Part shown: piece by piece, positions 34,078 through 63,644 of the stretch | How the letters are laid out: every line of letters begins with the position of its first letter | How positions within the stretch are numbered: position 1 is the stretch's first letter | Assembly: GCA_035344075.1 (NCBI GenBank) | Contig: DAORAI010000005.1 | Span: forward strand, 1,509 to 65,508 | DNA length: 64,000 nucleotides | Reading direction: 5' to 3' | Origin: Woeseiaceae bacterium | GTDB taxonomy: Bacteria; Pseudomonadota; Gammaproteobacteria; Steroidobacterales; Woeseiaceae | Translations under genes and position numbers: made by a program | The notes under the pieces: generated by a model | The model's database searches: none | Seen by the model: only the letters and a program-made list of their open reading frames with translations | What the model was told of the DNA's origin: nothing

Positions 34078-36840
34078 ATGCAAAAAATGAAATTGGTGGA
34101 TCTCAAACAACTGGTCTTCTCGTTTAGCGCCATTGTCTGGCTGTTTGCGATTTGTGAATCGGTCAACGCCGCAGACATTGCGTCGGTTTCGATAGATAGC
34201 GAATCGAGCAGCGCCCAGAACAATGTACATGTCACTTTTGGCCACGTCTTCGCTCAGGGCGAGGTCGTGGATCCGGCGGTCCTTGGTGCACGACTGGCGG
34301 GCGGTGCAGTAGTTCCGCTGCAAGTTGATGCCAAAGCAACTCACGCCGACGGCTCGTTGCGACACGCTGTCCTGACAACCGTGCTACCCACCGTCGCTGC
34401 GAATTCGCAGAACGATCTGACACTACAGACGCCGGGCTCAAACGCGACCGGCGCTACAGTTACTCTCGCAAGTTTACTTGCCACGAGTTTTGATTCCGAT
34501 GTATCTGTCAATATTGGTGGCACCGTTTATTCGGCTTCGGCACGAGATTTGCTGAGCAGTGGAACACCCGACAGCTGGTTGTCGGGGCCACTGGTTTCAG
34601 AGTGGCTTGTCGCCGGGCCCATGCGTACGAATGCAGGTTCTCCGCACGCTCATCTAACGGCTCGTTTTCATGTACGTGCCTATGCCGGGCTGGGTGCCGT
34701 TCGTGTGTCGGTTACGCTGGAAAACAACTGGTCGCACGTCAGCGGTCCGCAGAATTTCAACTATGACGCGACGGTCAGCGTGCAGGGTCGTGGCATCGTA
34801 CTGTCGCAAGACAACGTTACTCACTATCGACAGGCGCGATGGCGTCGCGTTTTCTGGTGGGGCGATGAACCGCAGGTCGAAGTTGCGCACGACACCGGTT
34901 ACATGGAGCGTATGGGTGTTGTACCGACCTATGATCCGAGACTTCGCATTCCGCAGAGCGTCCTGAGCGGCATGGCATCGGACTGGAGTGGACGCAAAAC
35001 GGAATTGATGGCTTCCGGGCTTATTTATGAATACATGCCTGACGGTGGAGGGCGGCCAGATATCGCTCCGCTGCCGCGCTGGACAGCCCGATACCTGATG
35101 TCGCAGGACGCCCGGGCAAAAACGGCGGTTCTGGGCACCGGCGAACAAGCGGGCAGTTTCGGCATTCACTATCGCGACAAGGATACGGATCTGCCGATTT
35201 CACTCGATACCTACCCGAACATCAGCATTATGGGCCAGAGCAGCGCGTTCCCGTCATGCGGTGGCAGTTGCAGCACGCCCTATACGCCCGATATTGCGCA
35301 TCAACCATCGATGTCATTCGTTCCCTATCTTGTGACCGGCGACTATTTTCACCTTGAGGAGCTTCAGTTCTGGGCCAACTGGAATTTGTTCTACTGGGGA
35401 AATCATGGCGGAAGCCAGGGCTTGATGGTCAATGACCAGATTCGTGCTCAGGCCTGGGGACTGCGGACGCTTGGACATGCCGCATTTATTACACCCGACA
35501 ACCATCCGCTGAAGGCGTACTTCCTGTCCAAGCTCGACAACAATCTTGACTGGTACGAGAACAACATAGTCAGCAATCCGCCAACTCCGCTCGGTTACCT
35601 GCTGAATACGCCTGATATCGGCCTGGACAATACCTTCGCAACCTGGATGGACGACTTTTTCACCTGGACGGTCGGTCATCTTGTAAACCTTGGATTCGAC
35701 AATGCCGAGGGAATTTTTCAGTACAAGGCACGCTTTCCCGTAGGTCGCATGACCGATCCGGGTTATTGCTGGATTCTTGCACCGACCTACTGGACCCGGG
35801 CACGTGATGCTCAGACGGGCCAGCCTTTTTCCGATTGGACTGACTACAAAGTCGCTGTCGTGCGCTCGTGGGACAGCAGTTCCGTGGGCCCGAGCTTCTC
35901 GTCCTGGACAATTCCGCCAAACATGTCGAGCAGTCAGGAAGACCCACTCATCAATGCGGCCTGCAACAGCAGCGAGATGGCCGATATACTTGGAATGCAG
36001 CGCAGCAACATGATCGGCGGGTCATGGAGTCATGAAGGCTATACGTCGAACATGCAGCCGGCTGTTGCCGTTGCGGCGGAACGACGGGTAACGAATGGCG
36101 AGGCCGCCTGGAACCTGTTTGACAGCCGCGCCGTGGTACCGGATTCAGGTAATTACGATTACAACGTGTCGCCGCAATGGGCAATCGTACCGGGCAATAT
36201 TGACCTCGGTACACCTGGCCCGGGCAACCAGCTGCCAACGGTATCGTTGTCGGCGAATCCGAGATCTATTGCCTCCGGTGGTACGACGACATTGAGCTGG
36301 TCGTCTTCCGACGCGGATTCCTGCCAGGCCTCAGGCGCCTGGAGTGGCAGCAAGTCGTTTTCTGGAACACAGTCAATCGGAGGGCTGACAAGCGACAGCA
36401 CCTTCACGCTGGTTTGCAGCAATTCCCAAGGCAGTGACACGGCAAATGTAACAGTCACGATCCAGGCACCTGGAGCGCCGACAGTTTCGTTTTCGAGCAG
36501 TCTGAGTTCGGTATCTCAGGGCTCCAATGTAACGCTGACCTGGTCATCGCAAAATACCGACTCCTGCTCGGCGTCGGGCGCATGGTCAGGCAACAAGGCG
36601 ACCTCCGGAAGCGAGTCAGTGGGTCCGCTGAGCCAGAACAGCAGTTTCACACTGACCTGTTCGGGTTCCGGAGGTAACGTCAGCGAGAGCCTGAGTGTCA
36701 GCGTCACTGCCACTCCGCCGGATGCGGGCAATCCCGAAGAAGAAGGCGGTGGAGCGATTGGTTACTGGAGTCTGTTGTTTTATCTGTTGGCCGTGTGGCG
36801 TCGCGTACATGGCAGACGGTGTAATGAGGTTTCAGTTTGA
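34078..36840 (+). CDS. Large secreted protein: ~700-aa unassigned (possibly glycan-active) domain + 2 two-Cys Ig-like modules + GlyGly-CTERM-like tail
   Basis: Signal peptide 'MQKMKLVDLKQLVFSFSAIVWLFAICESVNA' (starts at 34057/34078/34087 are possible). The body has no motif I can name. The tail is 'EEEGGGAIGYWSLLFYLLAVWRRVHGRR'. Confidence 0.8.
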   Translation: MQKMKLVDLKQLVFSFSAIVWLFAICESVNAADIASVSIDSESSSAQNNVHVTFGHVFAQGEVVDPAVLGARLAGGAVVPLQVDAKATHADGSLRHAVLTTVLPTVAANSQNDLTLQTPGSNATGATVTLASLLATSFDSDVSVNIGGTVYSASARDLLSSGTPDSWLSGPLVSEWLVAGPMRTNAGSPHAHLTARFHVRAYAGLGAVRVSVTLENNWSHVSGPQNFNYDATVSVQGRGIVLSQDNVTHYRQARWRRVFWWGDEPQVEVAHDTGYMERMGVVPTYDPRLRIPQSVLSGMASDWSGRKTELMASGLIYEYMPDGGGRPDIAPLPRWTARYLMSQDARAKTAVLGTGEQAGSFGIHYRDKDTDLPISLDTYPNISIMGQSSAFPSCGGSCSTPYTPDIAHQPSMSFVPYLVTGDYFHLEELQFWANWNLFYWGNHGGSQGLMVNDQIRAQAWGLRTLGHAAFITPDNHPLKAYFLSKLDNNLDWYENNIVSNPPTPLGYLLNTPDIGLDNTFATWMDDFFTWTVGHLVNLGFDNAEGIFQYKARFPVGRMTDPGYCWILAPTYWTRARDAQTGQPFSDWTDYKVAVVRSWDSSSVGPSFSSWTIPPNMSSSQEDPLINAACNSSEMADILGMQRSNMIGGSWSHEGYTSNMQPAVAVAAERRVTNGEAAWNLFDSRAVVPDSGNYDYNVSPQWAIVPGNIDLGTPGPGNQLPTVSLSANPRSIASGGTTTLSWSSSDADSCQASGAWSGSKSFSGTQSIGGLTSDSTFTLVCSNSQGSDTANVTVTIQAPGAPTVSFSSSLSSVSQGSNVTLTWSSQNTDSCSASGAWSGNKATSGSESVGPLSQNSSFTLTCSGSGGNVSESLSVSVTATPPDAGNPEEEGGGAIGYWSLLFYLLAVWRRVHGRRCNEVSV
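36238..36711 (+). repeat. Coding repeat: two ~80-aa two-Cys Ig-like modules
   Basis: 'TTTLSWSSSDADSCQASGAWSGSKSFSGTQSIGGLTSDSTFTLVCSNSQG' and 'NVTLTWSSQNTDSCSASGAWSGNKATSGSESVGPLSQNSSFTLTCSGSGG'. Confidence 0.8.
36745..36840 (+). other. GlyGly-CTERM-like sorting tail
   Basis: GGG, then hydrophobic 'AIGYWSLLFYLLAVW', then basic 'RRVHGRR'. Confidence 0.6.
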
Positions 36841-38828
36841 TGCGTAACAACATCGCAAGATGGAAGAGGTGGTCGGTCCTCGCGTTGATTCCGACCGTAT
36901 TGTCTGGCTGCCTGAGCGAAGAGAAAGCATCGGTCGAAGACAATCCTGAAGCGCCGGTCGTGTCGATCAACGCGGTACCCTCGACAGTTGACCCGGGCGA
37001 TACAACGACATTGAGCTGGGACGCCACAGGCGCAGACAGCTGTACTGCATCGGGCGCGTGGAGCGGCAGCCGTACATTGACGGGCACAGAGACATCCGGT
37101 CCCTTGCAATCGAGCAGCCAATTCACGCTGACCTGTACGGGGCCCGGTGGCAGCACGAGTCAAACGGCAGCGGTAACGGTCAGTGGTGGGGCTGCGCAAC
37201 CGACGCTGACGTTTACGGCATCGCCCAGCGTAGTCGCGCAGGGAGCCGCGGCGACACTTCAATGGACCACCACGAACGTCGATAGCTGCACCGCATCGGG
37301 TGACTGGACAGGAAACAAGGGAACGTCTGGGTCGGAGTCGACGGGAAGCCTGAATAGCAACGCGACCTATACGCTCGATTGCGTCGGTCCGGGTGGCACT
37401 ATTGGCAACACGCGAACGGTAACAGTGGCGGCCGGGTCTGCCGGAATTTTCGGCAGTGTTGACAGCAGCCTGGTAAGCAGAACGCTATCGAACAGCGTCT
37501 ACCTGTACGCGGGAGCCGTTACTCCCGACGACTTTGACGGCGATTCGGGTGATCCCTTGCTAAGTGCCACAGTCCGTCAGGACAGCGGAGCCTGTACGTT
37601 CGGCTACGACGCAGGCTCGCTGGCGGCAGGCGAATACACGCTGGCCTTCGTAGCTGGTAGCTCCAATGACGACCCGCAAACTGACGAGGTGATCGACTTT
37701 GTTGGCACGCAGACGGTTACTGTCGGCGCGAGTCCGACAGTTGCGAACTTCGACGCCTCCAATATTATTCGCGTCGGCCCAGGCCGCACTTATCAAACCG
37801 TTGCAGCCGCGGCAAATGCGGCTCAAGACGGTGATGTCGTTGAAATTGACGCCGGCGTTTACGCAGCGGATGTTGCGAGCTGGTTTCAGGACAACCTCAC
37901 GCTTCGCGGCGTCGGCGGGTACGCGCACCTGCGCGCAGATGGCGTCAATGCGCAAGGGAAGGCCATCTGGGTAATCGCGGGCAACGACGTGGTTGTTGAG
38001 AATATCGAGTTCTCCGAGATCTCAGTGCCGGATCAGAATGGCGCTGGAATAAGGCATGACGGGCGGAATCTTGTCGTGTGTAACGGTTACTTCCATGACA
38101 GCGAGGAAGGCATTCTGGGTGGTGCCGGAAACGTGCTCGTGGAGTACTCGGAATTCGACAATAACGGTTTTGGTGATGGCTTCAGCCACAACATGTACAT
38201 ACTTGATGCAGACCGGTTCACATTGCGTCATAGCTATATGCACCATGCCCGCATTGGCCACAACGTCAAAAGCCGAGCTCGCGAAAACTACATCTTGTAC
38301 AACAGGATAATGGACGAGTCGAATGGCACGTCCAGTTATGCTGTCGATATACCGAATGGTGGCTTGAGCTACCTGATTGGCAACCTGATGCAGCAGGGGC
38401 CAAATACGGACAACTCGGTCATCGTCAACTATGGCACCGAAGGCCTGTCGGGCGGCCGTACGCACAACCTGTATCTCGTGAACAATACGCTGGTCGATGA
38501 CTACGGCGGCACGTTCTTGCAGGCCGCTGGCGGTACCGCACTGATAGAACTGATCAACAACCTGTTCGTTGGCGGTGGCAACATTATCAGTGGGCCGCAA
38601 GCAAACATGACGACAAACCTGCAAACAACTGCTCCGGAGTTTGTCGCGATCGATTCTTACAATTACCGCCTTACCGGAAACTCGCCTGCCCGCGATGCAG
38701 GCAGCACACCGGGCACCGGCAACGGCTTTGATCTGCACCCTGAGTTTCAGTACCTGCACAAGAGTGACAGGGAATCGCGCCCGGTGGAGGGCGCAATCGA
38801 TGTCGGCGCGTATGAGTTTACGCCATGA
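36840..38828 (+). CDS. Lipoprotein: 2 two-Cys Ig-like modules + beta-sandwich + right-handed parallel beta-helix (polysaccharide lyase/epimerase-like) domain
   Basis: TGATG overlap with the upstream gene. Lipobox 'VLSGC'. The beta-helix part, 'DGDVVEIDAGVYA...LTLRGVGG...AIWVI.GNDVVVENIEFS...NGAGIRHDG.NL.V..GYFHDSEEGIL...EYSEFDNNGFGDGFSHNMYI...HHARIGHNVKSRA', is paralogous to 45870-46955. Confidence 0.8.
   Translation: MRNNIARWKRWSVLALIPTVLSGCLSEEKASVEDNPEAPVVSINAVPSTVDPGDTTTLSWDATGADSCTASGAWSGSRTLTGTETSGPLQSSSQFTLTCTGPGGSTSQTAAVTVSGGAAQPTLTFTASPSVVAQGAAATLQWTTTNVDSCTASGDWTGNKGTSGSESTGSLNSNATYTLDCVGPGGTIGNTRTVTVAAGSAGIFGSVDSSLVSRTLSNSVYLYAGAVTPDDFDGDSGDPLLSATVRQDSGACTFGYDAGSLAAGEYTLAFVAGSSNDDPQTDEVIDFVGTQTVTVGASPTVANFDASNIIRVGPGRTYQTVAAAANAAQDGDVVEIDAGVYAADVASWFQDNLTLRGVGGYAHLRADGVNAQGKAIWVIAGNDVVVENIEFSEISVPDQNGAGIRHDGRNLVVCNGYFHDSEEGILGGAGNVLVEYSEFDNNGFGDGFSHNMYILDADRFTLRHSYMHHARIGHNVKSRARENYILYNRIMDESNGTSSYAVDIPNGGLSYLIGNLMQQGPNTDNSVIVNYGTEGLSGGRTHNLYLVNNTLVDDYGGTFLQAAGGTALIELINNLFVGGGNIISGPQANMTTNLQTTAPEFVAIDSYNYRLTGNSPARDAGSTPGTGNGFDLHPEFQYLHKSDRESRPVEGAIDVGAYEFTP
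36957..37433 (+). repeat. Coding repeat: two two-Cys Ig-like modules
   Basis: 'TTTLSWDATGADSCTASGAWSGSRTLTGTETSGPLQSSSQFTLTCTGPGG' and 'AATLQWTTTNVDSCTASGDWTGNKGTSGSESTGSLNSNATYTLDCVGPGG'. Confidence 0.8.
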
Positions 38829-40735
38829 AACAAGGCCGTACGCTAAAGTTGAACCAAGAGGTTGACCCAATGAATAGAACAGTCTTTGAACGTCATAAGG
38901 ATATGATGACAGAGAAACCGCCAGGCAACAGCCTGCCGTTGACCGCTTGCCTGCTGCTGGCCGGTATCTTTTCCGCGGCGGTTGCCAACGCCCAGGGCAA
39001 TGAAACCAGTCCGTTTATCGACAGTATCGCTGTTGGGTCAGCCTGGCAGAATGTCACGGCGAATGAGGGCAATAACCTCAGAATCGACTATCAGACCGTA
39101 GCGTATTCGGGTGGTGGCACCAAGAATGGCCGGACTGTCGTCTTCGGCGGCGGACATAACAATGGTTTGAATGACGCCGTCGCGTTTCTTGATTGGCGCA
39201 ATTTCGAGACCGTCGGCTGGACAGAAGAGTTGGTATCGACGGCCGACCATATCGGTGTCGCCGATAATGACTGGGGCCAAATCGGCCAGTATCTGAACGC
39301 AAACTACAATGGCGCGACCCCGGGAGGAATCTCCGACGATCGTGGCCTGGTGGCGTTGTCTCGACACACCTATGATCAGATAGTCGTACGATCGGATCAC
39401 TTCTATATTTTCTCCGGCATCCTGCCGTATGACAATCCCGGGCAACCCAATGAACCCTGGGATCATGTAGAGGGCGATATCTGGCGCTATGACTTCGGCT
39501 CCGGCTGGAGCTTTATTGGCGCGCCGCTGGCAAACCAGTATGGCGGGCATGCGGCAGCGGCTGAAGATACATTGACCGGCAATATCTGGGTGCACGACGG
39601 TGCCGGGCTGCGTCTTTTCAATACGACGTCGGAGACGGTCAGTTCGCCGATCGCGTCTTTGAGTTCGCAAGCGGAGGAGTCGTCTTTGAATTTTAATCCG
39701 GACAAAGGCGCACAGGGCACCTTGTTCGGGTCCGGACGTTTCGCAGGTAGTAGCTGGCACGAGTACGACATTGCAACGGGCCAGCAGCGCAACATGGGTG
39801 CTGTTCCCGGCAATGCTGAAAGCACGTATATCATCTACGTTGACGCCTCATTCGGATCGAATTACGGCACCTATTTCGCGATCGTTCCGCAGAACGGGAC
39901 TCTCCGGCGCTGGAATGGGTCCGGTTGGGATACGGTTGCAACCGGTGGTCCAACAGGTAACGGGCACGTTTACGGCCGCGCCGGGTTTGAACCCGTCCAT
40001 CAGGTGTTCTACTGGATACACAATTCGTACAGTGGCAATAATGCCTGGCAAACACGCGTGGTTCGTCCGTATCCATTCAATGGCAGCGCTGAGCCGCCTC
40101 CGACGGTCGCATTGTCTGCGGACCCGGAGTCCGTGCCAGCACAGGGGACGACCACTTTGACGTGGAGCAGCACGAACGCCAATAGTTGCAATGCGTCCGG
40201 AGACTGGAGCGGCGCCAAACCATTGTCAGGCAGCGCATTTTTCGGGCCATTGAACTCGGACAAGACATATTCACTGGCCTGTAGCGGCAGTGGCGGAACC
40301 TCTTCAGATACGGTGACTGTCACGATTCAGGGTACGCAGCCTGCTCCGACTGTCAGTATTTCGGCCAATCCGTCATCTGTCGATGCAGGTGGATTTGCCG
40401 TTGTGGACTGGACCTCGTCAAACGCCAGCAGTTGCTCGGCATTCGGTGACTGGTCCGGAAACAAGCCGCTGCAGGGCAGCGAGTCGGTTGGCCCACTGTC
40501 GCAGGATTCGACTTTCCGAATGACGTGTTCGGGCACGGGCGGCGATGCAACCAATGCAGCGACCATTACTGTGAATACTCCTGCGCCGCCGCCGCCACCA
40601 CCACCGCCCGTTGACGATAATCCGACGACCGACCCCCAGAACCAAATCGGTGGTGGTTCCTTCGGTTTGCTGTTCTTGCTGATGCTTGCGACCCTGGGGC
40701 TTTTCAGGCAGACGGTGATCGATCGCCGACGATAG
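38825..40735 (+). CDS. Secreted beta-propeller-like domain + 2 two-Cys Ig-like modules + poly-Pro linker + GlyGly-CTERM-like tail
   Basis: ATGA overlap with the upstream gene (internal ATG 38870 is an alternative start). Signal peptide '...LTACLLLAGIFSAAVANA'. 'AYSGGG', 'FGGGHNN' and 'SRHTYDQ' are shared with 30373-31554. The tail is 'GGGSFGLLFLLMLATLGLFRQTVIDRRR'. Confidence 0.8.
   Translation: MKQGRTLKLNQEVDPMNRTVFERHKDMMTEKPPGNSLPLTACLLLAGIFSAAVANAQGNETSPFIDSIAVGSAWQNVTANEGNNLRIDYQTVAYSGGGTKNGRTVVFGGGHNNGLNDAVAFLDWRNFETVGWTEELVSTADHIGVADNDWGQIGQYLNANYNGATPGGISDDRGLVALSRHTYDQIVVRSDHFYIFSGILPYDNPGQPNEPWDHVEGDIWRYDFGSGWSFIGAPLANQYGGHAAAAEDTLTGNIWVHDGAGLRLFNTTSETVSSPIASLSSQAEESSLNFNPDKGAQGTLFGSGRFAGSSWHEYDIATGQQRNMGAVPGNAESTYIIYVDASFGSNYGTYFAIVPQNGTLRRWNGSGWDTVATGGPTGNGHVYGRAGFEPVHQVFYWIHNSYSGNNAWQTRVVRPYPFNGSAEPPPTVALSADPESVPAQGTTTLTWSSTNANSCNASGDWSGAKPLSGSAFFGPLNSDKTYSLACSGSGGTSSDTVTVTIQGTQPAPTVSISANPSSVDAGGFAVVDWTSSNASSCSAFGDWSGNKPLQGSESVGPLSQDSTFRMTCSGTGGDATNAATITVNTPAPPPPPPPPVDDNPTTDPQNQIGGGSFGLLFLLMLATLGLFRQTVIDRRR
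40103..40580 (+). repeat. Coding repeat: two two-Cys Ig-like modules
   Basis: 'TTTLTWSSTNANSCNASGDWSGAKPLSGSAFFGPLNSDKTYSLACSGSGG' and 'FAVVDWTSSNASSCSAFGDWSGNKPLQGSESVGPLSQDSTFRMTCSGTGG'. Confidence 0.8.
40649..40735 (+). other. GlyGly-CTERM-like sorting tail
   Basis: The ggt ggt ggt codons at 40649-40657 are followed by 'SFGLLFLLMLATLGLF' and a terminal 'RRR'. The tail is preceded by a P8 linker. Confidence 0.65.
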
Positions 40736-42138: not shown

Positions 42139-42147
42139 TGGCCCTCG

Positions 42148-49954: not shown

Positions 49955-50006
49955 ACCCGCGGCAGAACGGCACCTGCTGCCTTTCGTATAGCTCAGACGA
50001 CTTACT

Positions 50007-51350: not shown

Positions 51351-51367
51351 ATTGAGGATCAATTGTC

Positions 51368-51967
51368 ATGTCCGAAAATCCGTACTTTGTCCACGAATCA
51401 TCGTATGTAGATGATCCGTGCTCTATAGGGAAAGGGACTCGTATTTGGCATTTCAGCCACATCATGCAAGGCAGCACGATCGGCAAGAACTGCAATATTG
51501 GCCAGAATGTCGTGATTTCTCCGCGTTGCGTAATTGGCAACAACGTCAAGATTCAAAATAATGTATCGGTTTATACCGGCGTAATTCTCGAAGATGATGT
51601 TTTCTGCGGTCCGTCAATGGTTTTTACCAACGTGATCAATCCGCGGAGTCATGTTGAACGCAAGGATGAATACAAGACGACTCTCGTCAAGAAAGGGGCA
51701 TCAATCGGTGCAAACGCGACAATTGTGTGCGGCGTAACGCTTGGCGAATATGCGTTCGTCGGTGCCGGATCCGTAGTCACCCGGGACGTCCCTGATTACG
51801 CAGTCGTATACGGTTCGCCGGCTCGCATAAAGAGCTGGGTCTGTAATTGTGGACTGCGGTTGTCGCTGTCCGCCGATCTAAACAGCGATGAGTCCGCAAG
51901 CTGTGAATGTGGCAAGCGCTATCAGAAGAAAAAATCATCTGTAACTGAATTGAACCAGAGCACCTAG
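51368..51967 (+). CDS. Hexapeptide N-acetyltransferase, WbpD/WlbB-like
   Basis: '[82 protein letters not shown]'. Confidence 0.75.
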
Positions 51968-51982
51968 CAAGGGACAAAACCT

Positions 51983-53164: not shown

Positions 53165-53167
53165 GCA

Positions 53168-54292: not shown

Positions 54293-54457
54293 ACTGTGGC
54301 GCAGTTCCGATTCCAAGTGTGCAGCAGTTCCACACCTTGCCGACCGTGTCTGTGCGATAATTCGCGCGCCAAACGATTATGAGAAGCCTGTGGCCGGTGG
54401 AAACCGCCTGCAGCCGGATTTGTGTTGAACTGTGCCTGTCGAGTCGAAGGAAGACGA

Positions 54458-55465: not shown

Positions 55466-56463
55466 AAAAGTCAGGAAAGGCCATGAAGGAAGAATCAACG
55501 AATCGTCGAATTGCAAGTCTGTCGCTGGACTTGGATAACCAGTGGTCTTACATGAAAACCCACGGCGACCCGGGCTGGAAAACATTTCCTTCATACCTGG
55601 ACTGGTCTGTGCCACGGATTCTGGAGTTCCTCAAGAAGCGCGACCAGAAAATTACGTTTTTCATCGTGGGCCAGGATGCTGCACAGGATTGCAATGCCGA
55701 TGCGATGCGGGCAATCAGCGAGGACAAGCACGAGATCGGAAATCACAGTTTTCATCATGAGCCCTGGTTACATACCTACTCCGAAGAGGAAATGGAAAAG
55801 GAACTTGAGCTGGCTGAACAAGCCATTGTCGGCGCAACAGGGCAGATGCCGCGCGGGTTCCGGGGGCCTGGATTCAGTCTATCGGATATCACACTGCGCA
55901 CGCTTTCGCGCCGCGGTTACAAGTATGATGCAACCGTTTTTCCCAACCTTCTGAATCCGCTGGCACGAGCCTATTTTTTTGCAACCAGCTCTCTGACCGC
56001 CGAGGAAAAGGAGCAAAGAAAGGAGCTCTTCGGAACATGGCGAGATGCACTTCGACCGGTGAAACCGTTTCAATGGGTTATTGACGATCAGGATTTGATG
56101 GAGTTGCCGGTTACTACCATGCCCTTGTTCAAGACACCGATACATCTGAGTTACATTCTGTTCGCGTCGCGGTACTCCCGCACTCTTGCAATGATGTATT
56201 TCCGGCTTGGACTGCTGATGTGCCGAATTACAGGAACTGCGCCGTCGCTTTTGCTGCATCCGCTGGATTTCATCGGTTGCGATGATGTTGGCGAGCTCGC
56301 ATTTTTCCCGGGAATGGACATGCTGGCGGCGGACAAAATGAGTATTGTTTCGCAAGTTCTTGACATACTGGAGGAGCATTTTGAGCCGGTGACTGTCGGT
56401 GAGCATATTGATGCACTTGATCCCCCATTTCGTCGACTTGAGCTCGAGGCGTCACGAGGCTGA
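55462..56463 (+). CDS. Polysaccharide deacetylase-family protein
   Basis: ATGA overlap with the upstream gene. 'ITFFIVGQDA', 'HEIGNHSFHHEPW', 'FRGPGFS'. Confidence 0.7.
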   Translation: MKKSGKAMKEESTNRRIASLSLDLDNQWSYMKTHGDPGWKTFPSYLDWSVPRILEFLKKRDQKITFFIVGQDAAQDCNADAMRAISEDKHEIGNHSFHHEPWLHTYSEEEMEKELELAEQAIVGATGQMPRGFRGPGFSLSDITLRTLSRRGYKYDATVFPNLLNPLARAYFFATSSLTAEEKEQRKELFGTWRDALRPVKPFQWVIDDQDLMELPVTTMPLFKTPIHLSYILFASRYSRTLAMMYFRLGLLMCRITGTAPSLLLHPLDFIGCDDVGELAFFPGMDMLAADKMSIVSQVLDILEEHFEPVTVGEHIDALDPPFRRLELEASRG

Positions 56464-56493
56464 AATCCAGAAAGTAGTTACAAGGTAGATAAT

Positions 56494-56784
56494 ATGCAGC
56501 AAGAAATCGTTGAATTGATCATTAAAACGGCAAAAGAGCTTGGTGACGAAGAGTTGTCGCTTTCGCAGGAGTTGAACGCAGACACTCAGCTCTTTGGAAA
56601 GGACGGTGTCCTCGACTCCATGGGCCTCGTAACGCTTATCATTGCGGTCGAGCAGGCGATTGAAGACCGATACGAGGTATCTGTTGCACTCGCCGACGAG
56701 AAGGCCCTGTCCCAAGCGCGGAGTCCGTATCGTTCAGTTACCCGACTTGCAGAGTACGCTGCAGGCCAGATGCAGGACACCTAG
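56494..56784 (+). CDS. Acyl/peptidyl carrier protein
   Basis: 96 aa with the phosphopantetheine-attachment motif 'GVLDSMGLVTLI'. Confidence 0.8.
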   Translation: MQQEIVELIIKTAKELGDEELSLSQELNADTQLFGKDGVLDSMGLVTLIIAVEQAIEDRYEVSVALADEKALSQARSPYRSVTRLAEYAAGQMQDT

Positions 56785-56787
56785 ACA

Positions 56788-57486
56788 ATGTCGGCACCTG
56801 TCACTCTGATAACCGGCACGCGCAAGGGAATCGGCCGCCACCTGGCTGAATACTATTGTGACCGTGGTCATATCGTATACGGATGCAGTCGTGGCGATCC
56901 CGGCTGGAGCAGGGAAAACTACAAGCATTTCGTTGCCGATGTTTCGAATGAAGGTGAAGTCAAGCCGATATTTTCTGCGATTCGACGTGAGCATGGGCGC
57001 CTGGACAACTTGCTGAACAACGCTGGCATCGCTTCCATGAATCACTCAATTCTTACACCGATGGACACGGTAAAGAAGATAATGGAAACCAACGTAATCG
57101 GCAGCTTCCTGTTCTGTCGAGAAGCGGCAAAGTTGATGAAGGCCAACAAGTACGGAAGGATAGTGAATTTCTCCACAGTTGCGGTGCCACTCAAGCTTGA
57201 GGGTGAAGCCGCGTACGTGGCTTCAAAATCGGCCGTCGAGGGTCTCACTAACGTCTTGTCTCGAGAGTTTGCAAGCTTCGGCGTTACCGTGAATGTAGTA
57301 GGTCCTGTTCCGATCGAGACAGACCTGATTCGTGCCGTGCCGAAAGAGAAGATCGAAGCACTGGTTGCTCGGCAGGCGATCAAGCGACTGGGCCAAATGG
57401 AGGACGTTGTTAACGTAGTCGATTTCTTTCTCAAGAGAGAAAGTGAGTTCATTACCGGCCAAAGCCTCTACCTCGGAGGCGTGTAG
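56788..57486 (+). CDS. Short-chain dehydrogenase/reductase (FabG-like)
   Basis: 'VTLITGTRKGIGRHLA', 'NNAGIA', 'YVASKSAVEGL'. Confidence 0.8.
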   Translation: MSAPVTLITGTRKGIGRHLAEYYCDRGHIVYGCSRGDPGWSRENYKHFVADVSNEGEVKPIFSAIRREHGRLDNLLNNAGIASMNHSILTPMDTVKKIMETNVIGSFLFCREAAKLMKANKYGRIVNFSTVAVPLKLEGEAAYVASKSAVEGLTNVLSREFASFGVTVNVVGPVPIETDLIRAVPKEKIEALVARQAIKRLGQMEDVVNVVDFFLKRESEFITGQSLYLGGV

Positions 57487-58829
57487 TGCATATTGAATTC
57501 CTGAGGCAAAAGTTTGCCGAGTCCAGCGGAGCCGATGCGCTTGTATGGCACAATCAAGTGTTCACGTATCAGCATCTGCTCGACGAAATCGACAATTGGT
57601 TTCGTATTCTCGATTCCGAGAAAATCGAGAAAGGATCGGTTGTCAGCATTGAGGCGGATTTTTCGCCACGCGCGATTGCACTGATGCTCGCATTGGTCGA
57701 TCGAAATTGCGTGATCGTACCGTTGAGCAGTTCAGTAGCGAATCAAATTCCCGAATTCCGCGAGATCGCGCAGGTTGAGGTTGTTATTTCATTTAGCGCC
57801 GACGATGTTCCCGATATTAGCCGGACAGGCAATACTGTAACCCACCCGGTCTTACTGGGGCTGAAGAACATTGAGCACCCGGGATTGATCTTGTTTTCCT
57901 CCGGGTCAACCGGAAAAAGCAAGGCGGCAGTGCACGACTTTGTGCCCATGTTGCAGAAGTACAAATTGCAACGTCATTCATTGCGCACGATTACTTTTCT
58001 TCTGTTCGATCATATCGGTGGTGTGAATACGCTGCTTTACAACCTGTCCAACGCGGGTTGTGTAATTACAGTTGCAGATCGAAGGCCGGAAACGGTGTGC
58101 GAAACGATCGACAAATACGGCGTCGAGTTGTTGCCTACGTCACCGACTTTTCTGAACCTGATGTTGATGAGTGGCGCGCTGGAGACGAGGAAGCTCGACA
58201 GCCTGAAGATGATTACGTACGGCACAGAGGTGATGCCGGAGAGCACCCTGGCGCGCATTCACGAGCTGCTGCCAAACGTGAAATTGTTGCAGACCTATGG
58301 CTTATCCGAAGTAGGCATACTCAGATCGAAGTCGAAATCGTCCGATTCGCTGTGGGTTCAGGTTGGCGGCGAAGGATTTGAGACGAGAATCGTGGACGGC
58401 CTTCTCGAGATTCGGGCGGAGTCTGCGATGCTTGGCTATCTGAATGCGCCAAGTCCGTTCACGGATGACGGATGGTTCAAAACAGGCGATGCGGTTGAGG
58501 TTGACGGCGAGTACATCAAAATACTTGGCCGCAAGTCTGAAATTATCAATGTCGGCGGTGAGAAGGTTTATCCGGCTGAGATTGAAAGCATATTGCAGAC
58601 GATGGATGGTGTTGTTGAGGTCGTTGTCAGCGCCGAGCCGCACCCGCTAACCGGCAATATCGTTGTCGCTCGCGTAAAACTGAGTTCGAACGAAGATCTT
58701 CCGCAATTTCGCAAGCGCATGCGCGAGTTTTGCTCGTCAAAGCTCGCGCGTTTCAAGGTTCCTCAAAAGGTTGAGCTGGTCGATCAGTCACTTCATGGGG
58801 AGCGCTTCAAGAAAATGAGGAAATTTTGA
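57486..58829 (+). CDS. AMP-forming adenylating enzyme (acyl/aminoacyl-carrier-protein ligase-like)
   Basis: GTG start overlaps the upstream TAG by 1 nt. 'ILFSSGSTGKSKAAVH', 'YGTEV', 'DGWFKTGD', 'ILGRKSEIINVGGEKVYPAEIE'. Short for the family (447 aa). Confidence 0.8.
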   Translation: MHIEFLRQKFAESSGADALVWHNQVFTYQHLLDEIDNWFRILDSEKIEKGSVVSIEADFSPRAIALMLALVDRNCVIVPLSSSVANQIPEFREIAQVEVVISFSADDVPDISRTGNTVTHPVLLGLKNIEHPGLILFSSGSTGKSKAAVHDFVPMLQKYKLQRHSLRTITFLLFDHIGGVNTLLYNLSNAGCVITVADRRPETVCETIDKYGVELLPTSPTFLNLMLMSGALETRKLDSLKMITYGTEVMPESTLARIHELLPNVKLLQTYGLSEVGILRSKSKSSDSLWVQVGGEGFETRIVDGLLEIRAESAMLGYLNAPSPFTDDGWFKTGDAVEVDGEYIKILGRKSEIINVGGEKVYPAEIESILQTMDGVVEVVVSAEPHPLTGNIVVARVKLSSNEDLPQFRKRMREFCSSKLARFKVPQKVELVDQSLHGERFKKMRKF

Positions 58830-59530
58830 GCGCGGTCGAGCACAACGGCCATGTGCATCAGATTCGGGAAATCGCGTACGACGATCAGGCCGATATGGAC
58901 AGAGTGGCGGACTTGCATATCGAGTTGCTCGGCTTCGGGCCCATGGCAGGATTGGGAAGGCGTTTTGTAAGAGATGCCTGCTATGCGAATAACATGCGGG
59001 ATGGGCAGCTCAAAGTCGCCGTCTATGAAATCGATGGAGTCATCGGTGGATTTGTTGCCTACACCGATCGGTCGATATCCTTTCATAGGACGTCACTAAA
59101 GAAGCATTGGCTGCGTACGGCGTTCACTCTTATTCGATCGCTAATTGAAGACCCACGGCGCATCGTGGCTCTCGTGCGCGCGTTAGCGGTATTGGGATCA
59201 CGACGTACCGAGCACGGTATCGTAGGCAATGACCCGATGGGGGAAGTCGTTTGTATAGCAGTGCAGAAGGAATATCTGAAAACAGAATATCGCTTGCCAA
59301 GCGGTCCGCGACCGGGGGAATCGCTGATTGCCTATGCCGCGCATCGTTTGACTGAGCTCGGCGTGCATGAAATGCGAATGCTCGTTGATGCTGACAACAA
59401 GGCGGTTTTGTTCCTGTATCGTGCGCTTGGGGCGAGATTTGAAAATTACCAGCAAGCGGGCGAACCTATGATCCAGGTCTGGTTTGAATTGCCCCTCGAA
59501 AAACAGGGGCTGGAAATCCCGTGGGCCTGA
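58826..59530 (+). CDS. GNAT-fold acyltransferase, putative
   Basis: 'GEVVCIAVQKEY...GESLIAYAAHRLTELGVHEMRMLVDADNKAVLFLYRALGARF' resembles GNAT motifs A and B. The TTG start is uncertain. Confidence 0.5.
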   Translation: MSAVEHNGHVHQIREIAYDDQADMDRVADLHIELLGFGPMAGLGRRFVRDACYANNMRDGQLKVAVYEIDGVIGGFVAYTDRSISFHRTSLKKHWLRTAFTLIRSLIEDPRRIVALVRALAVLGSRRTEHGIVGNDPMGEVVCIAVQKEYLKTEYRLPSGPRPGESLIAYAAHRLTELGVHEMRMLVDADNKAVLFLYRALGARFENYQQAGEPMIQVWFELPLEKQGLEIPWA

Positions 59531-60282
59531 CAAGAAGAGAAACAAAGGCAGAGGTCGTTTCGGCGGTGAACGATCAATCGGGTGACTATTGGCAATCCCA
59601 CTACGATTCAATGGCCCACCACGAGTCACTCGACTTGTTCGATGCGGAGTCCCGCGACTATTTTGCCAGATTGCAAAAGGCAATCGACCTCAGGGACTAT
59701 GAGCGAGTTCTGGACTTCGGTTGTGGTTTGGGTTTCGTCTCCGGACTGCTTGCGCCGAAAGTAGGCAGTTTGTTCTATTGGGACTATTCGGAAAACATGC
59801 TGGCAACGGCCAGGGTCAGGCTGGCCGGGTTTCCCAATGCGCAGGCTGTCGATCTTTCGCATCCCGGTGCGAGTGAGGACGACGCGAGGAGCCTCAACCT
59901 GATTGTTGTCAACAGCGTCATACAGTACATGTCCGAGGACGATCTCTCGACATGGCTCGCGGTGTGGAAAAGCATGTTGAAAGCAAACGGTGAACTGGTG
60001 ATATCTGATCTGATTCTGCCCGAACCGGCATTTTTGCGGGAGGTCGCCGATTCTCTGACATTCTCGGCGAGGCAGGGATTTCTAATCCGGACACTACTGA
60101 AGAACTTCGCACAATACGCGCGTTACCTTAAGGCAAGGCGGGATGCTCCCATGTCACGGTATTCGAAAGAACACTTCCTGAAACTCGCGGTTAGAGCCGG
60201 TTTTACAGTGGACTTCCTGGAGGAGAACCTGACGTACCGCACAAATCGGTACAGCGTAAAACTGAGTCCGATACCTGATTGA
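59521..60282 (+). CDS. Class I SAM-dependent methyltransferase
   Basis: Motif I 'RVLDFGCGLGFVSG', post-I 'YWDYSENM', motif II 'LIVVNSVIQYM'. Confidence 0.75.
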   Translation: MGLTRRETKAEVVSAVNDQSGDYWQSHYDSMAHHESLDLFDAESRDYFARLQKAIDLRDYERVLDFGCGLGFVSGLLAPKVGSLFYWDYSENMLATARVRLAGFPNAQAVDLSHPGASEDDARSLNLIVVNSVIQYMSEDDLSTWLAVWKSMLKANGELVISDLILPEPAFLREVADSLTFSARQGFLIRTLLKNFAQYARYLKARRDAPMSRYSKEHFLKLAVRAGFTVDFLEENLTYRTNRYSVKLSPIPD

Positions 60283-60286
60283 TGCG

Positions 60287-61429
60287 ATGCCTAGTCTCGA
60301 AACTTTCATAATCAGCGATGAAGACGGCTTTCAAGCCCTGGCCAATGACTGGAACAGGCTCGCGAGCCTGACAAATGCGGATTCAGTGTTCTTCCGGCAC
60401 GAATGGAGTGATGCCAGCTGGCAGTGGCTAAAACAGGAAGGATGTGAACTTTGTATAGTTTGCGTTCGCAGGGACGGCAACCTGATTGGGCTATGTCCGC
60501 TCGTTCGTCGTCGCATCACGCTGGCGGGCATTCGGATGCGAAAGTTGAGTTCCCTCGCTGTGCCGGATAACCAGGAGTTCAGTTTGCTCGCCGATCCGCA
60601 GGATGTGGAATGTGTTGCGGCTGCCCTGTTCTCTGCCTTAAGAAACGGCACCGTGCAGTGGGATTTATTGGATTTCGAAAAGCTGCCCTGTGAGCTGCCG
60701 TCAACAAAAGCGCTGTTGAATGCCGCGTCTGAATCTCGCTACGCGATTCAGGAAACGCTGAGACATGCGAATCCGGGCATTGACTTGAGGGGTGGATGGG
60801 ACGCCTACTACGGCCGCCGCTCCAGACGACTCAAGAAAGGCAACAACCTGGTCAGAAATCGCCTGGAACGTGACGGCAAAGTCGTCGAGATTCAGTGCAT
60901 TGATTCATCCAATGACGATCTCGACCTGCAGTCTCTACTCAGGGTTCTGGAGGATATTTCGGCGCGTAGCTGGAAGTCCGTCACCGGGCTGACACTGGAC
61001 AATCCGGGTCCCGGTGCATTTCTCGCGCGGTTAAGTGAATTGGCAAGCAGAAACGCCTGGTTGCTTGTCTGGCTTTTGTTGATCGACCAAAAACCAGTAG
61101 CGATGGAGTATCAATTGGAATTCAATGGCGTGGTATCGGGATTGCGCGCGGACTTTGATGATGAGTACAGCGACTCCTCGCCCGGAACACTGCTGAACTG
61201 GCGAATAATCGAGCAATTATTCGGGCGCGACGCCTCCTATTACGCGCTCGGCCCTGGCTCCAATGCTTACAAGGCCCGGTGGGTTGAGGAGTCCCGGGAA
61301 CTCGTTGATGTGGTCATTTACGGGAATTCGCTACGCGCTAACGCCGTCCGGACACTCCAGCTTTACGTAAAACCGTTCGTCAAGCGAATCCTTGGGAAAA
61401 ACGGCGCTTCGAGCCGCGAAGACGACTGA
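60287..61429 (+). CDS. CelD/BcsL/FemAB-like acyltransferase-fold protein
   Basis: 380 aa. 'FFRHEWSDASWQWL', '...LLVWLLLIDQKPVAMEYQLEFNGVVSGLRADFDDEYSDSSPGTLLNW...' fits the CelD-type GNAT-related domain as I recall it. Confidence 0.55.
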   Translation: MPSLETFIISDEDGFQALANDWNRLASLTNADSVFFRHEWSDASWQWLKQEGCELCIVCVRRDGNLIGLCPLVRRRITLAGIRMRKLSSLAVPDNQEFSLLADPQDVECVAAALFSALRNGTVQWDLLDFEKLPCELPSTKALLNAASESRYAIQETLRHANPGIDLRGGWDAYYGRRSRRLKKGNNLVRNRLERDGKVVEIQCIDSSNDDLDLQSLLRVLEDISARSWKSVTGLTLDNPGPGAFLARLSELASRNAWLLVWLLLIDQKPVAMEYQLEFNGVVSGLRADFDDEYSDSSPGTLLNWRIIEQLFGRDASYYALGPGSNAYKARWVEESRELVDVVIYGNSLRANAVRTLQLYVKPFVKRILGKNGASSREDD

Positions 61430-61580
61430 TTCGGAACAAAATCGTGCGACATGTCCTACTTTCCGGGCTGCGAGTTGCTATTGTGGCGGGAATGTCTTGT
61501 CGCCATAGACAAGGTGAAGCGACAATTGGACGTGTCGGTGTAGATCCTTAACTTTTCGAATAAAACGGTCGGTGAGCACA

Positions 61581-63644
61581 ATGTGGAGATATCATCATCG
61601 GAGCAATGGTTCTGGCCTGATTGTCAGTAAGTTTCTGATATTGTTTGTTTTTCTGGCTTCGTCGCTGGCGAATGCTTCGTCTCTGCGGTATTTCGGCAAT
61701 GGCACCAACGACATCGATAGAGTCAAAATCCGTATTGATGACCCGGCCAACAATGCCCCCGGCCCGCCTGCTGATATTGGCGCCAGTGATTTCACGATCG
61801 AACTGTGGCTCAAGGCAGCCTCGGGCAACAACGCCGGCGCTGTTTCCTGTGGTTTCAACTACAGCTGGATCAACGGCAACGTTGTCGTCGACAGAGATCG
61901 CTTTAACCAGGGACGTACCTTTGGTGTCTCGCTTGGCGCAGGTCGAGTTGCGTTTGCGGTGCAGAATGCGTCAAACGAGTCGCGGACTCTTTGCGGGTCG
62001 ACAGACTTGCGGGATGGTGCCTGGCATCATGTGGCCGTGCAGCGCCGGCGCAGCGATGGGTTCATGTCGGTCTACGTTGATGGCGCACTGGAAGCCTCCG
62101 GTGATGGTCCGGATGGCGATGTGTCGTATCCTGACAATGGGGTACCAACAAACGATTGCGGCGGGCCATGTACCGGCAGTGATCCGTTTCTCGTCATCGG
62201 CGCCGAAAAACACGATGCGGCACCGCAGTACCCGTCATTTTCCGGTTGGGTAGACGAGCTTCGATTGTCCAGTTCCTTGCGTTACTCAGCGAACTTCGCC
62301 CCGGCACAACAGGCATTTGTCGCGGACGCCAATACAGCGGCGCTGTACCATTTCGATGAAGGCAGTGGTGATGTGATTAACGACTCATCCTCTGCCGGTC
62401 AAAGCCCCGGCGAGCGACGATTTGGTGGCAATCCTGCCGGCCCGGCCTGGAGCGCCGATACCCCGTTTTCCGGAGGCGGCGGCGCCGGCACACTCCGCCT
62501 GTCTTCGGCTGCATACTCTGTTGCGGAAGATAGCGGCACGGCGACAATAACGGTCAATCGGACGGGTGGCGCCAGTGGCCAGGTGAGTGTCGACTTTGCA
62601 ACCAGCGACGGCACCGCGACTGCCGGTGCCGACTACCAGGCGGCGATGGGAACCCTTAGCTGGCCGGATCTCGACTCCACCAACAAGTCATTTTCCGTCG
62701 CGATAACAGACGATTTCGATAACGAGGGCGATGAGACGATCGACATAGCGTTGTCGAACGTGTCCGGCAATGCAGTGCTCGGATCTCCAACGGCTGCGGT
62801 GCTGACGATTTCGGACAACGATGTTCCGAATGCCGGAAGCGTGGGTCTGTCGTCAAGCGGCTATTCTACGGGCGAAGGCACCGCGGCGACGATAACGTTG
62901 ACACGCATTGGTGGCAGTGATGGTGTGGCATCCGTCGACTACGCAACCGCAGACGGCAGTGCAACGGCGGGCGCGGACTATCAACCGGCGCTCGGTACTG
63001 TCAATTGGCCGGATGGCGATTCGGCTAACAAAACCTTCTCGGTGACGGTCAACGATGATTCGGAGCTGGAAGGCGATGAAACCGTCAGCATCAGTTTGCA
63101 GAACGTGACCGGCGCGGCCGCGGGAAGCCCACTGACGGCCGTACTGACAATCGTTGACGACGAGGTGGCGGCCCAGGGGTCGGCGCAGTTTGCGGCAAAC
63201 GCTTATACGGTCAACGAAAATATCGCGACAGTGGCCATCGTTGTTACTCGTGAGGGCGGTACCGATGGTGCGGTGACAGTGGACTACGCAACTCAATCAG
63301 CGAGCGCTGTTTCCGGGACGGACTTTCAGGCTGCGAATGGCGTGCTGTCCTGGACCGACGGGGACGGAACGCAAAAGACAGTCAACGTGACGATCATCGA
63401 TGACGCAGGCGACGAAAATAACGAAACGTTTACGGTGTCTCTAAGCAATCCGACTGGCGGCTTACAACTTGGCAATTTCGATACGACGACCGTCACTGTA
63501 GTTGATAACGATGACGCGCCGCCACCGCCGCCTCCCAGTCGCGGTGGCGGTGGCGGATCGACCGGGTTCTTTTTCCTGTTGAGCATACTTGCGGGCACAT
63601 TCATTCGCATGCATAGGCGATTCAGGTCCGCGATCACATTGTAA
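61581..63644 (+). CDS. Secreted LamG-like (concanavalin-type) domain + four Calx-beta domains + GlyGly-CTERM-like tail
   Basis: Signal peptide '...FLILFVFLASSLANA'. LamG-type 'DFTIELWLKA...GAWHHVAVQRR..G..SVYVDG....FSGWVDELRLS'. Four repeats of '...Y.V.E..G.A.I.V.R.GG..G..SVDYAT.DGSATAG.DY....G...W.DGD...K.F.V.I.DD...EG.ET...L'. The tail is 'GGGGGSTGFFFLLSILAGTFIRMHRRFR'. Confidence 0.85.
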   Translation: MWRYHHRSNGSGLIVSKFLILFVFLASSLANASSLRYFGNGTNDIDRVKIRIDDPANNAPGPPADIGASDFTIELWLKAASGNNAGAVSCGFNYSWINGNVVVDRDRFNQGRTFGVSLGAGRVAFAVQNASNESRTLCGSTDLRDGAWHHVAVQRRRSDGFMSVYVDGALEASGDGPDGDVSYPDNGVPTNDCGGPCTGSDPFLVIGAEKHDAAPQYPSFSGWVDELRLSSSLRYSANFAPAQQAFVADANTAALYHFDEGSGDVINDSSSAGQSPGERRFGGNPAGPAWSADTPFSGGGGAGTLRLSSAAYSVAEDSGTATITVNRTGGASGQVSVDFATSDGTATAGADYQAAMGTLSWPDLDSTNKSFSVAITDDFDNEGDETIDIALSNVSGNAVLGSPTAAVLTISDNDVPNAGSVGLSSSGYSTGEGTAATITLTRIGGSDGVASVDYATADGSATAGADYQPALGTVNWPDGDSANKTFSVTVNDDSELEGDETVSISLQNVTGAAAGSPLTAVLTIVDDEVAAQGSAQFAANAYTVNENIATVAIVVTREGGTDGAVTVDYATQSASAVSGTDFQAANGVLSWTDGDGTQKTVNVTIIDDAGDENNETFTVSLSNPTGGLQLGNFDTTTVTVVDNDDAPPPPPPSRGGGGGSTGFFFLLSILAGTFIRMHRRFRSAITL
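63543..63644 (+). other. GlyGly-CTERM-like sorting tail
   Basis: A G5 run after a P6 linker, then hydrophobic 'TGFFFLLSILAGTFI', then basic 'RMHRRFR'. Confidence 0.65.

Follow-up and report, generated by a model that had tools for sequence, protein, structure and literature searches.

A 64,000-nucleotide stretch of DNA from a Woeseiaceae bacterium (GenBank assembly GCA_035344075.1, contig DAORAI010000005.1, positions 1,509 to 65,508; hereafter, the window) carries an exopolysaccharide island of the exosortase (XrtA)/PEP-CTERM type. Three secreted proteins encoded in this island, termed here P1, P3, and P4, end in a glycine run, a hydrophobic helix, and a basic cluster (a GG tail). All three tails are of the GlyGly-CTERM type; that of P3 is canonical, that of P1 borderline, and that of P4 divergent and only tentatively assigned. 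By analogy with characterized GlyGly-CTERM systems, the best explanation is that these tails are processed, without involvement of XrtA, by a rhombosortase whose gene lies elsewhere in the genome, and that the cargo probably processes glycans; we consider this reading probable.

Three proteins with GG tails

An earlier reading of this DNA, made from the sequence alone, had placed such tails at the ends of three large proteins, and translation of P1, P3, and P4 bore this out, with the C-termini EEEGGGAIGYWSLLFYLLAVWRRVHGRRCNEVSV, PPPPPPPPVDDNPTTDPQNQIGGGSFGLLFLLMLATLGLFRQTVIDRRR, and DAPPPPPPSRGGGGGSTGFFFLLSILAGTFIRMHRRFRSAITL, respectively. Together with P2, which is encoded between P1 and P3, these proteins and their tails are located as follows (positions are those of the window).

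34078 to 36840, plus strand (open reading frame 34057 to 36840): P1, secreted, 917-920 residues; PL26-lyase-like core, two immunoglobulin (Ig)-like modules, disordered linker, GG tail
36745 to 36837, plus strand: tail of P1, GGGAIGYWSLLFYLLAVWRRVHGRRCNEVSV; Gly run, hydrophobic helix, basic cluster
36837 to 38828, plus strand: P2, predicted lipoprotein (lipobox LSGC); two Ig-like modules after the lipobox, no C-terminal tail
38870 to 40735, plus strand (open reading frame 38825 to 40735): P3, secreted, 621-628 residues; N-terminal domain, two Ig-like modules, poly-Pro linker, GlyGly-CTERM tail
40649 to 40732, plus strand: tail of P3, GGGSFGLLFLLMLATLGLFRQTVIDRRR; TIGR03501 match above cut-off
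61581 to 63644, plus strand (open reading frame 61572 to 63644): P4, secreted, 687 residues; LamG/ConA-like domain, three Calx-beta domains, poly-Pro linker, GG tail
63543 to 63641, plus strand: tail of P4, GGGGGSTGFFFLLSILAGTFIRMHRRFRSAITL; Gly run, helix, basic cluster

At their N-termini, P1, P3, and P4 have signal peptides with AxA-type sites, read directly from the sequence (...CESVNA/AD, ...AAVANA/QG, and ...SLANA/SS, with the slash at the site). Poly-Pro linkers precede two of the tails, as had been claimed, namely those of P3 and P4; P1 has none. The Gly motifs of the three tails are GGGA, GGGS, and GGGGGS and contain no Cys. They are followed by 16-19 uncharged hydrophobic residues and then by RRVHGRR, R..DRRR, or RMHRRFR, with 0 residues past the basic cluster in P3, 5 in P4, and 6 in P1. 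In the AlphaFold model of P1, the C-terminal helix spans residues 894-916 and follows a linker with a predicted local distance difference test (pLDDT) score below 50; the model contains no other long hydrophobic helix.

The three proteins are already in the public record. P1 is 100% identical to HNP62617.1 ("hypothetical protein PKH39_01715 [Woeseiaceae bacterium]") and P3 to HNP62619.1, which NCBI names [quoted passage not shown]. The exact sequence of P4 is that of HNP62640.1 ("Calx-beta domain-containing protein [Woeseiaceae bacterium]"), and its gene call was confirmed on five Logan contigs.

The tails match GlyGly-CTERM rather than PEP-CTERM models

The curated cut-off of TIGR03501, the model for GlyGly-CTERM, is 15.5 bits for a whole protein, and searches were reported with E up to 10. 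P3 passes with 17.5 bits for the full protein and 21.4 bits for the isolated tail. P1 reaches 13.9 bits as a full protein, below the cut-off, and 19.0-19.3 bits as an isolated tail. TIGR03501 is the sole sorting-signal model to match either protein. P4 has no match to TIGR03501 at all; its only related match is to the C-terminus of the SVAGG GlyGly-CTERM family, which extends to model position 404 of 407 and scores 35.9 bits for the whole protein. No PEP-type model matched any of the three tails at E≤10, and none of them contains a PEP motif. The earlier statement that the tails follow the GlyGly-CTERM and not the PEP-CTERM pattern is supported, although more weakly than had been stated for P1, which is borderline against the model, and for P4, which goes unmatched.

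For P4, the assignment to GlyGly-CTERM is tentative and draws on sequence comparison. Full-length homologues of P4 in JGI metagenomes keep the Gly run, helix, and basic cluster, one of them after a poly-Pro linker, and their tails score mostly below the TIGR03501 cut-off (best, 13.9 bits). One such homologue, on JGI contig Ga0187892_10000225, has the tail ...PPPPPPPPPRGGGGASGWLALGFLLLLGRLGAGRRERLSAA, which has no TIGR03501 match and weakly matches NF058595 (15.6 bits, cut-off 37, E 0.016). NF058595 is described as a "lipo-invert putative C-terminal anchoring domain", and no mention of it was found in the literature searched.

The window also encodes a single canonical PEP-CTERM protein.

11631 to 12305, plus strand: PEP-CTERM protein with the tail ...VEIPEPAGLALLGIGLLGLGFVIRRRRSRLS, the only canonical one in the window

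This protein scores 22.8 bits against TIGR02595 (cut-off 16) and 25.8 bits against PF07589, and its tail matches about 20 PEP-type models. The PEP-CTERM/XrtA system (TIGR02595/TIGR03109; PMC1569441) provides the genomic setting of the GG tails and shares with them a general tripartite architecture, but its signature is Pro-Glu-Pro, whereas the tails of P1, P3, and P4 carry a Gly run.

Homology links the tails to trusted GlyGly-CTERM signals

The C-terminal cassettes of P1 and P3, each made up of two Ig-like modules, a linker, and the tail, are 52% identical over approximately 200 residues, and sequence comparison identifies them as paralogous. A search with P1 returned 1410 relatives, which share a common core of approximately 700 residues ending in ...PQWAIVPR and have variable C-termini. 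An alignment of 48 tails was made from 46 members of the P1 family together with P3 and P4. Conservation in these 48 tails reaches 90% or more at two Gly positions and one basic position, with column identity averaging 24%. TIGR03501 matches 16 of them at E≤0.02, with a best E of 4e-6 (for example, SGGGSMGWLSLALLGLLGLRRR); PEP-CTERM matches none. The number of residues past the basic cluster ranges from 0 to 24 in the homologous tails, with a median of about 6-8. Among orthologues, the tails are conserved at 50-81% identity.

Under the biocuration rule of Haft and Varghese (PMC3237569), weak tails are promoted through extended homology to trusted ones. P1 qualifies as GlyGly-CTERM by this rule because its extended homology runs through trusted tails. 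For P4, support under the same rule is weaker and comes from the alignment to the C-terminus of the SVAGG family and from the one homologue at 13.9 bits.

The tail as an interchangeable anchor

Anchors were counted in the 120 listed homologues of P1. GG tails are present in 38 of these, with about five further divergent helical tails, and an N-terminal lipobox is present in 29. Not one of the 120 listed homologues combines a GG tail with a lipobox, and not one has a PEP tail. Some homologues instead have a type IX secretion system (T9SS) C-terminal domain, PF18962. The mutual exclusion of GG tail and lipobox suggests that the tail is equivalent to a lipid anchor, as processing by a rhombosortase would yield. 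Judged from these sequences, the tail behaves as an interchangeable anchor.

A similar exchange is seen within the operon. P2 has the same pair of Ig-like modules as its neighbors, placed directly after the lipobox Cys, and P1, P2, and P3 thus share a design of anchor, stalk, and enzyme in either polarity. The duplicated Ig-like module common to the three proteins is about 85 residues long (consensus ...TLxWSSxNAxSCxASGxWSGxK...) and always adjoins the anchor: in P1 and P3 it precedes the GG tail, and in P2 it comes directly behind the lipobox Cys. Used as a query, this module retrieved hundreds of short proteins; among those listed, many begin with a lipobox and only a few have a GG tail at the C-terminus. 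When the stalk-plus-tail cassette was used as the query, the matches were mostly short lipoproteins of other organisms, in which an fn3-like C-terminal domain follows an Ig-like module.

This behavior resembles that of the "choice-of-anchor" families of NCBIfam, since members of the P1 family alternate among a GG tail, a lipobox, a T9SS domain, and no anchor. The window likewise encodes a choice-of-anchor Z protein, and P2 has a weak choice-of-anchor Q match. However, P1 belongs to no curated NCBIfam family, and the likeness is descriptive, with homology not established. Families that swap GlyGly, PEP-CTERM, and LPXTG tails were noted already by Haft and Varghese in 2011 (PMC3237569).

Search for a rhombosortase

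As the sequence-only reading had stated, the window contains no rhombosortase: about 46 open reading frames were compared with NCBIfam, and some also with Pfam, without any match to a rhomboid family or to TIGR03902. A motif scan of the window for rhomboid-like open reading frames found none, and there is no rhomboid gene in the 4.6 kb of contig past the 3ʹ end of the window. Absence of the enzyme from 64 kb is expected, because rhombosortase genes lie far from their targets when a genome has several of these (PMC3237569). In the same survey, rhombosortase was present in 104 of 108 genomes with GlyGly-CTERM proteins. A motif scan within 10 kb of 158 related loci likewise found no rhomboid-like open reading frame, a result that provides no positive evidence, since distance is expected in genomes with several targets.

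Other searches were made for the enzyme itself. A peptide of the rhombosortase SO_2504, QLLGYVGLSGMLHGL (PMC3237569), padded to 40 residues, gave no match in a protein search, and a sequence search of the PDB with the GlpG core retrieved no rhombosortase. Rhomboid genes on plasmids and chromids of Ralstonia, Pseudoalteromonas, and Acinetobacter, found by tblastn with GlpG, were judged by motif only not to be rhombosortases: in each case either the residue four positions past the catalytic Ser is Tyr and not His, or the protein is long and has several domains.

Several of these results weigh against processing by a rhombosortase. P1 and P4 fall short of TIGR03501, 32 of the 48 homologous tails have no match to it, and no rhomboid-like gene lies near any of the 158 related loci. 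The enzyme is itself presumed and would be encoded outside the window and the adjoining 4.6 kb. Moreover, many members of the family run 6-24 residues beyond the basic cluster, which is unusual for GlyGly-CTERM, in which classic tails have 0-5 residues at this point (PMC3237569).

The same scores, extensions, and absence of nearby rhomboids favor a rival explanation, in which the tails are plain C-terminal transmembrane anchors, not cleaved by any sorting protease, that keep the enzymes on the periplasmic side of the inner membrane next to Wzx/Wzy-type polymerization machinery, the Gly and Pro residues serving as a flexible linker. It also counts for this rival that exopolysaccharide systems often have polymer-trimming enzymes that are periplasmic or tethered to the inner membrane. 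Set against it are the Gly positions before the helix, whose conservation of at least 90% in tails of about 24% identity would be unneeded in a simple linker, and the matches of P3 and 16 homologous tails to the curated TIGR03501 model. The mutual exclusion with lipoboxes further suggests that the tail is the equivalent of a lipid anchor. On balance, plain anchoring appears unlikely.

The tails are probably separate from the XrtA system

The XrtA locus of the window contains the following features.

78 to 45465, no strand assigned: core XrtA/PEP-CTERM exopolysaccharide locus, with NCBIfam equivalog matches above cut-offs
22216 to 23931, plus strand: XrtA (exosortase A) fused to an EpsI domain; start likely near 22321
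11569 to 11584, plus strand: sigma-54-type -24/-12 element TGGTAT-N5-TTGCT, a perfect TGGYAYN5TTGCW located 47 nucleotides upstream of the ATG at 11631

XrtA is canonical. It scores 298.2 bits against TIGR03109 (cut-off 208) and 75.7 bits against the EpsI model TIGR02914, has the Pfam domains Exosortase_EpsH and DUF3485, and is called as a 536-residue protein in related contigs. The window thus combines a canonical XrtA with GG tails but lacks a rhombosortase, so that signals belonging to two sorting systems stand interleaved in a single island, as had been proposed. No description of GlyGly-CTERM proteins embedded in an XrtA island was found in the literature searched.

Members of the P1 family often adjoin genes of the XrtA system (PrsK, PrsT, O-ligase, and amidotransferases) in 78 species-representative loci, with hosts in Woeseiaceae, Steroidobacteraceae, "Chromatiales", Noviherbaspirillum, Massilia, and Undibacterium. 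Judged from these gene neighborhoods, P1 is a recurrent accessory of XrtA islands in Gammaproteobacteria and Betaproteobacteria. In betaproteobacterial loci, P1 has no C-terminal tail and uses a lipobox, and neighboring genes encode canonical PEP-CTERM tails; in gammaproteobacterial loci, GG tails are found on the P1-P2-P3 module. Anchoring in the family therefore does not follow XrtA.

The PEP-CTERM gene is also set apart by its promoter region. Its perfect sigma-54 element is in keeping with RpoN-dependent PEP-CTERM genes controlled by PrsK/PrsR; by chance, approximately 0.24 perfect matches would be expected in the window as a whole. No such element was found upstream of P1, P4, the choice-of-anchor Z gene, PrsT, or the beta-helix gene. 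A shared sigma-54 promoter tying the GG-tailed genes to the PEP-CTERM regulon was accordingly dropped, the element being present only at the PEP gene.

The sequence-only reading had offered as an alternative that XrtA here accepts a non-PEP signal. This was not supported: XrtA is of the canonical kind, its own locus encodes a canonical PEP substrate, anchoring in the P1 family does not follow it, and the sigma-54 element is confined to the PEP gene. The absence of PEP tails from the 120 listed P1 homologues, in which GG tails alternate with lipoboxes, also counts against it.

A broader rival holds that the tails are a lineage-specific variant signal for the glycan enzymes of XrtA islands, handled by XrtA or by an unrecognized sorting enzyme. 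It draws on the recurrence of the GG-tailed P1-P2-P3 module in or beside XrtA genes at many gammaproteobacterial loci, on scores around or below the cut-off with often long C-terminal extensions, and on the presumed status of the rhombosortase. Besides the canonical XrtA and its substrate and the lipoboxes of betaproteobacterial XrtA-locus homologues, which have neither PEP nor GG tails, it must contend with GG-tailed homologues of P4 on contigs without XrtA core genes within 10 kb and with window scans that found no candidate protease gene. We regard it as very unlikely. Stated for the XrtA-type islands of Woeseiaceae, Steroidobacteraceae, and related Gammaproteobacteria, with the GG tails of the P1-P2-P3 module and of P4 as a distinct lineage-specific signal processed by XrtA or an unrecognized enzyme, it is highly improbable; if true, polysaccharide-trimming enzymes would be physically coupled to the exosortase machinery. 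The unannotated open reading frame at 58826-59530, considered as a hidden protease, was dropped, since it encodes a soluble protein with no family match.

To survey tails in the window, 499 stop-to-stop open reading frames of at least 60 residues were scanned for C-termini in which a hydrophobic stretch leads into a basic cluster. Seven were positive: four real genes, namely the three with GG tails and the PEP-CTERM gene, and three short antisense frames without a Gly run. The scan bore out the claim that only one true PEP tail occurs in 64 kb, and it argues that the tail pattern is no artifact of composition. Coincidence, whether of unrelated hydrophobic C-termini or of miscalled reading frames, finds some support in the low complexity of tripartite tails and in the hydrophobic-then-basic ends of those three antisense frames, but it is effectively refuted by the placement of the tails on long reading frames that have domain matches and signal peptides and are called alike by other pipelines, by the conservation of the tails among orthologues, and by the paralogy of the P1 and P3 cassettes.

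A proposed model for processing and anchoring

The GG tails and their proteins resemble the GlyGly-CTERM/rhombosortase system (RrtA, RssP; VesB; TIGR03501/TIGR03902; PMC3237569, PMC6219818, PMC13393428). Common to both are a Gly motif without Cys, a helix, and a basic cluster; a signal peptide, no other transmembrane segment, and an unstructured linker before the motif; and several unrelated cargo proteins that share the tail through paralogous cassettes, the cargo being secreted enzymes. Differences are also evident. P1 extends six residues past the basic cluster and many homologues extend further, against 0-5 in classic tails; the described cargo families do not include a PL26-like lyase, the N-terminal domain of P3, or a combination of LamG and Calx-beta domains; and the genes of the window lie inside an exosortase island.

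In Vibrio cholerae, the GlyGly-CTERM of VesB is cleaved by rhombosortase, a glycerophosphoethanolamine-containing moiety becomes attached to the Gly that this exposes, and VesB is then put on the cell surface by the type II secretion system (PMC6219818). Tail and rhombosortase suffice for membrane association, and an unstructured linker joins the tail to its cargo (PMC13393428). The analysis itself shows the sorting signals and the class to which they belong, the folds of the cargo, the gene locus, and the exchange of anchors; for the enzyme, the cleavage, the lipidation, and the secretion route, the favored model, in which a rhombosortase processes the tails, follows this VesB/RssP precedent. 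A signal peptide would carry each GG-tailed protein across the inner membrane, where the C-terminal helix and basic cluster would retain it so that the Gly run faces the periplasm. The rhombosortase, its gene lying in another part of the genome, would cut within the Gly motif, and the new C-terminus would gain a lipid-like moiety with glycerophosphoethanolamine. The protein would remain membrane associated and may reach the cell surface via the type II secretion system, the pair of Ig-like modules and the Pro-rich linker forming a stalk that keeps the enzyme domain off the membrane. XrtA would have no role in GG tails and would serve PEP-CTERM proteins, one of which is encoded in the same locus. 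We propose that the GG-tailed genes are located in the island because their cargo acts on its polysaccharide, and not because the two sorting systems are linked.

Cargo folds

The AlphaFold model of P1 (mean pLDDT 85) consists of N-terminal beta-sandwich domains, an alpha-helical barrel-like domain, and two Ig domains. Its top Foldseek matches are the PL26 exo-rhamnogalacturonan lyase structures 5xqg and 5xq3 of Penicillium chrysogenum (E 6e-9, probability 1.0), at a whole-chain TM-score of approximately 0.3 and an identity of approximately 10%. The first domain of the PL26 family, PcRGLX_1st (PF19501), matches P1 at 19.4 bits, below the cut-off of 22.1, and many P1 homologues carry a precomputed PF19501 annotation. 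The PL26 PcRGLX lyase resembles the P1 core in fold over its whole length, with a weak Pfam match to the N-terminal RIFT barrel, but it differs in the low identity and TM-score and in having no sequence-profile match to P1 in the PDB; nothing useful came of querying the PDB with the profiles and sequences of P1, P2, and P3. From the model, P1 is predicted to have a PL26-lyase-like fold and is a candidate enzyme.

The domain of P2 that follows the Ig-like modules has homology with a PF13229 beta-helix protein encoded at 45870-46955, and the two match the same regions of related loci in tblastn searches. At its C-terminus, P2 scores 17.6 bits against choice-of-anchor Q (cut-off 25). P3 has no Pfam family match, and P4 has Laminin_G_3 and three Calx-beta domains in Pfam. 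It is common for an exopolysaccharide locus to include a gene for a lyase or hydrolase of its own polymer. It is plausible that P1 and P2 are glycan-processing proteins, as predicted, and the predicted domains of P4 fit glycan binding. The P1 family could be a polymer-trimming enzyme of XrtA systems and a candidate for a new "choice-of-anchor" family. In some metagenome-assembled genomes (MAGs), 1500-residue proteins join a P1-like region with Kelch-type Pfam domains.

The locus and its setting

The window contains a complete, textbook XrtA locus. Comparison of its open reading frames with NCBIfam identified PrsK, FemAB, PrsT, an export protein, a chain-length determinant, a Tyr kinase, the TIGR03016 outer-membrane protein, the TIGR03006 deacetylase, the stp1 and stp2 glycosyltransferases (TIGR03087/TIGR03088), the XrtA-EpsI fusion, the TIGR03108 amidotransferase, the TIGR03097 O-ligase, and a flippase. 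All of these XrtA-system components score above their curated cut-offs except the Tyr-kinase domain, at 210 against 230 bits.

P1, P2, and P3 are encoded in a tight operon within the core locus, between a second amidotransferase and the O-ligase. Upstream of this operon lie about 630 base pairs of noncoding DNA (33452-34077) without a sigma-54 element. The second amidotransferase, which is asparagine-synthase-like and encoded on the minus strand at 31523-33451, aligns with TIGR03108 only from model position 102 and scores 276 bits against a cut-off of 817; its N-terminal 110 residues or so find no counterpart in the glutaminase part of that model. Many related loci keep this gene beside the P1 module. 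A foreign origin of the genes for P1 through P3 was considered and dropped, their GC content, overall and at third codon positions (GC3), matching that found elsewhere in the island.

P4 is the last gene ahead of bacterioferritin, and the 4.6 kb of contig past the 3ʹ end of the window encode bacterioferritin, a CCP_MauG peroxidase, and Bfd. Preceding P4 is a second sugar-modification block (47771-61429) with genes for a GT2 glycosyltransferase, a 4,6-dehydratase or epimerase, an FAD oxidoreductase, an acetyltransferase, a DegT-type aminotransferase, WecB, a GFO-type dehydrogenase, a deacetylase, an SDR protein, an AMP-dependent ligase, a methyltransferase, and GNAT-like proteins. A 96-residue gene between the deacetylase and SDR genes is called in related contigs. 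The composition of this block suggests an N-acylated amino-sugar in the polymer. The choice-of-anchor Z protein (7680-11438) has 1252 residues and six choice-of-anchor Z repeats (NF058597, 548.8 bits), with no Pfam match and no C-terminal anchor. A gene like it adjoins a GG-tailed, P4-like gene in several JGI contigs (L099-L103 and L168 in our numbering, the homologue tail matching NF058595 being that of L101); in the window, the two lie 50 kb apart.

The same locus was assembled from about 10 sequencing runs (SRR31366765-81). An identical amidotransferase is present in the UBA MAG GCA_002338605.1, and the closest species representative is the uncultured Woeseiaceae MAG FO_M_Gamma_097, at 81% identity.

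Implications

NCBI already annotates P3 as a GlyGly-CTERM protein, and the observation itself is fairly ordinary. Current models are not challenged, the exchange of tails having been known since 2011. The practical value lies mainly in annotation, since NCBI does not label P1 and P4 as sorting-signal proteins and a tail model tuned to this lineage would recover both. If the best explanation is right, the cargo repertoire of GlyGly-CTERM would gain a PL26-like lyase, the P3 protein with its unclassified N-terminal domain, and a protein with LamG and Calx-beta domains. The P1 family is also a clear natural example of anchor swapping between lipobox, GG tail, and T9SS domain, and such swapping is seen even inside a single operon. 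If the tails are indeed processed by a rhombosortase, Woeseiaceae, which are abundant in marine sediments, would run the exosortase/PEP-CTERM and rhombosortase/GlyGly-CTERM systems side by side, with the latter anchoring the probable polymer-trimming enzymes of the island.

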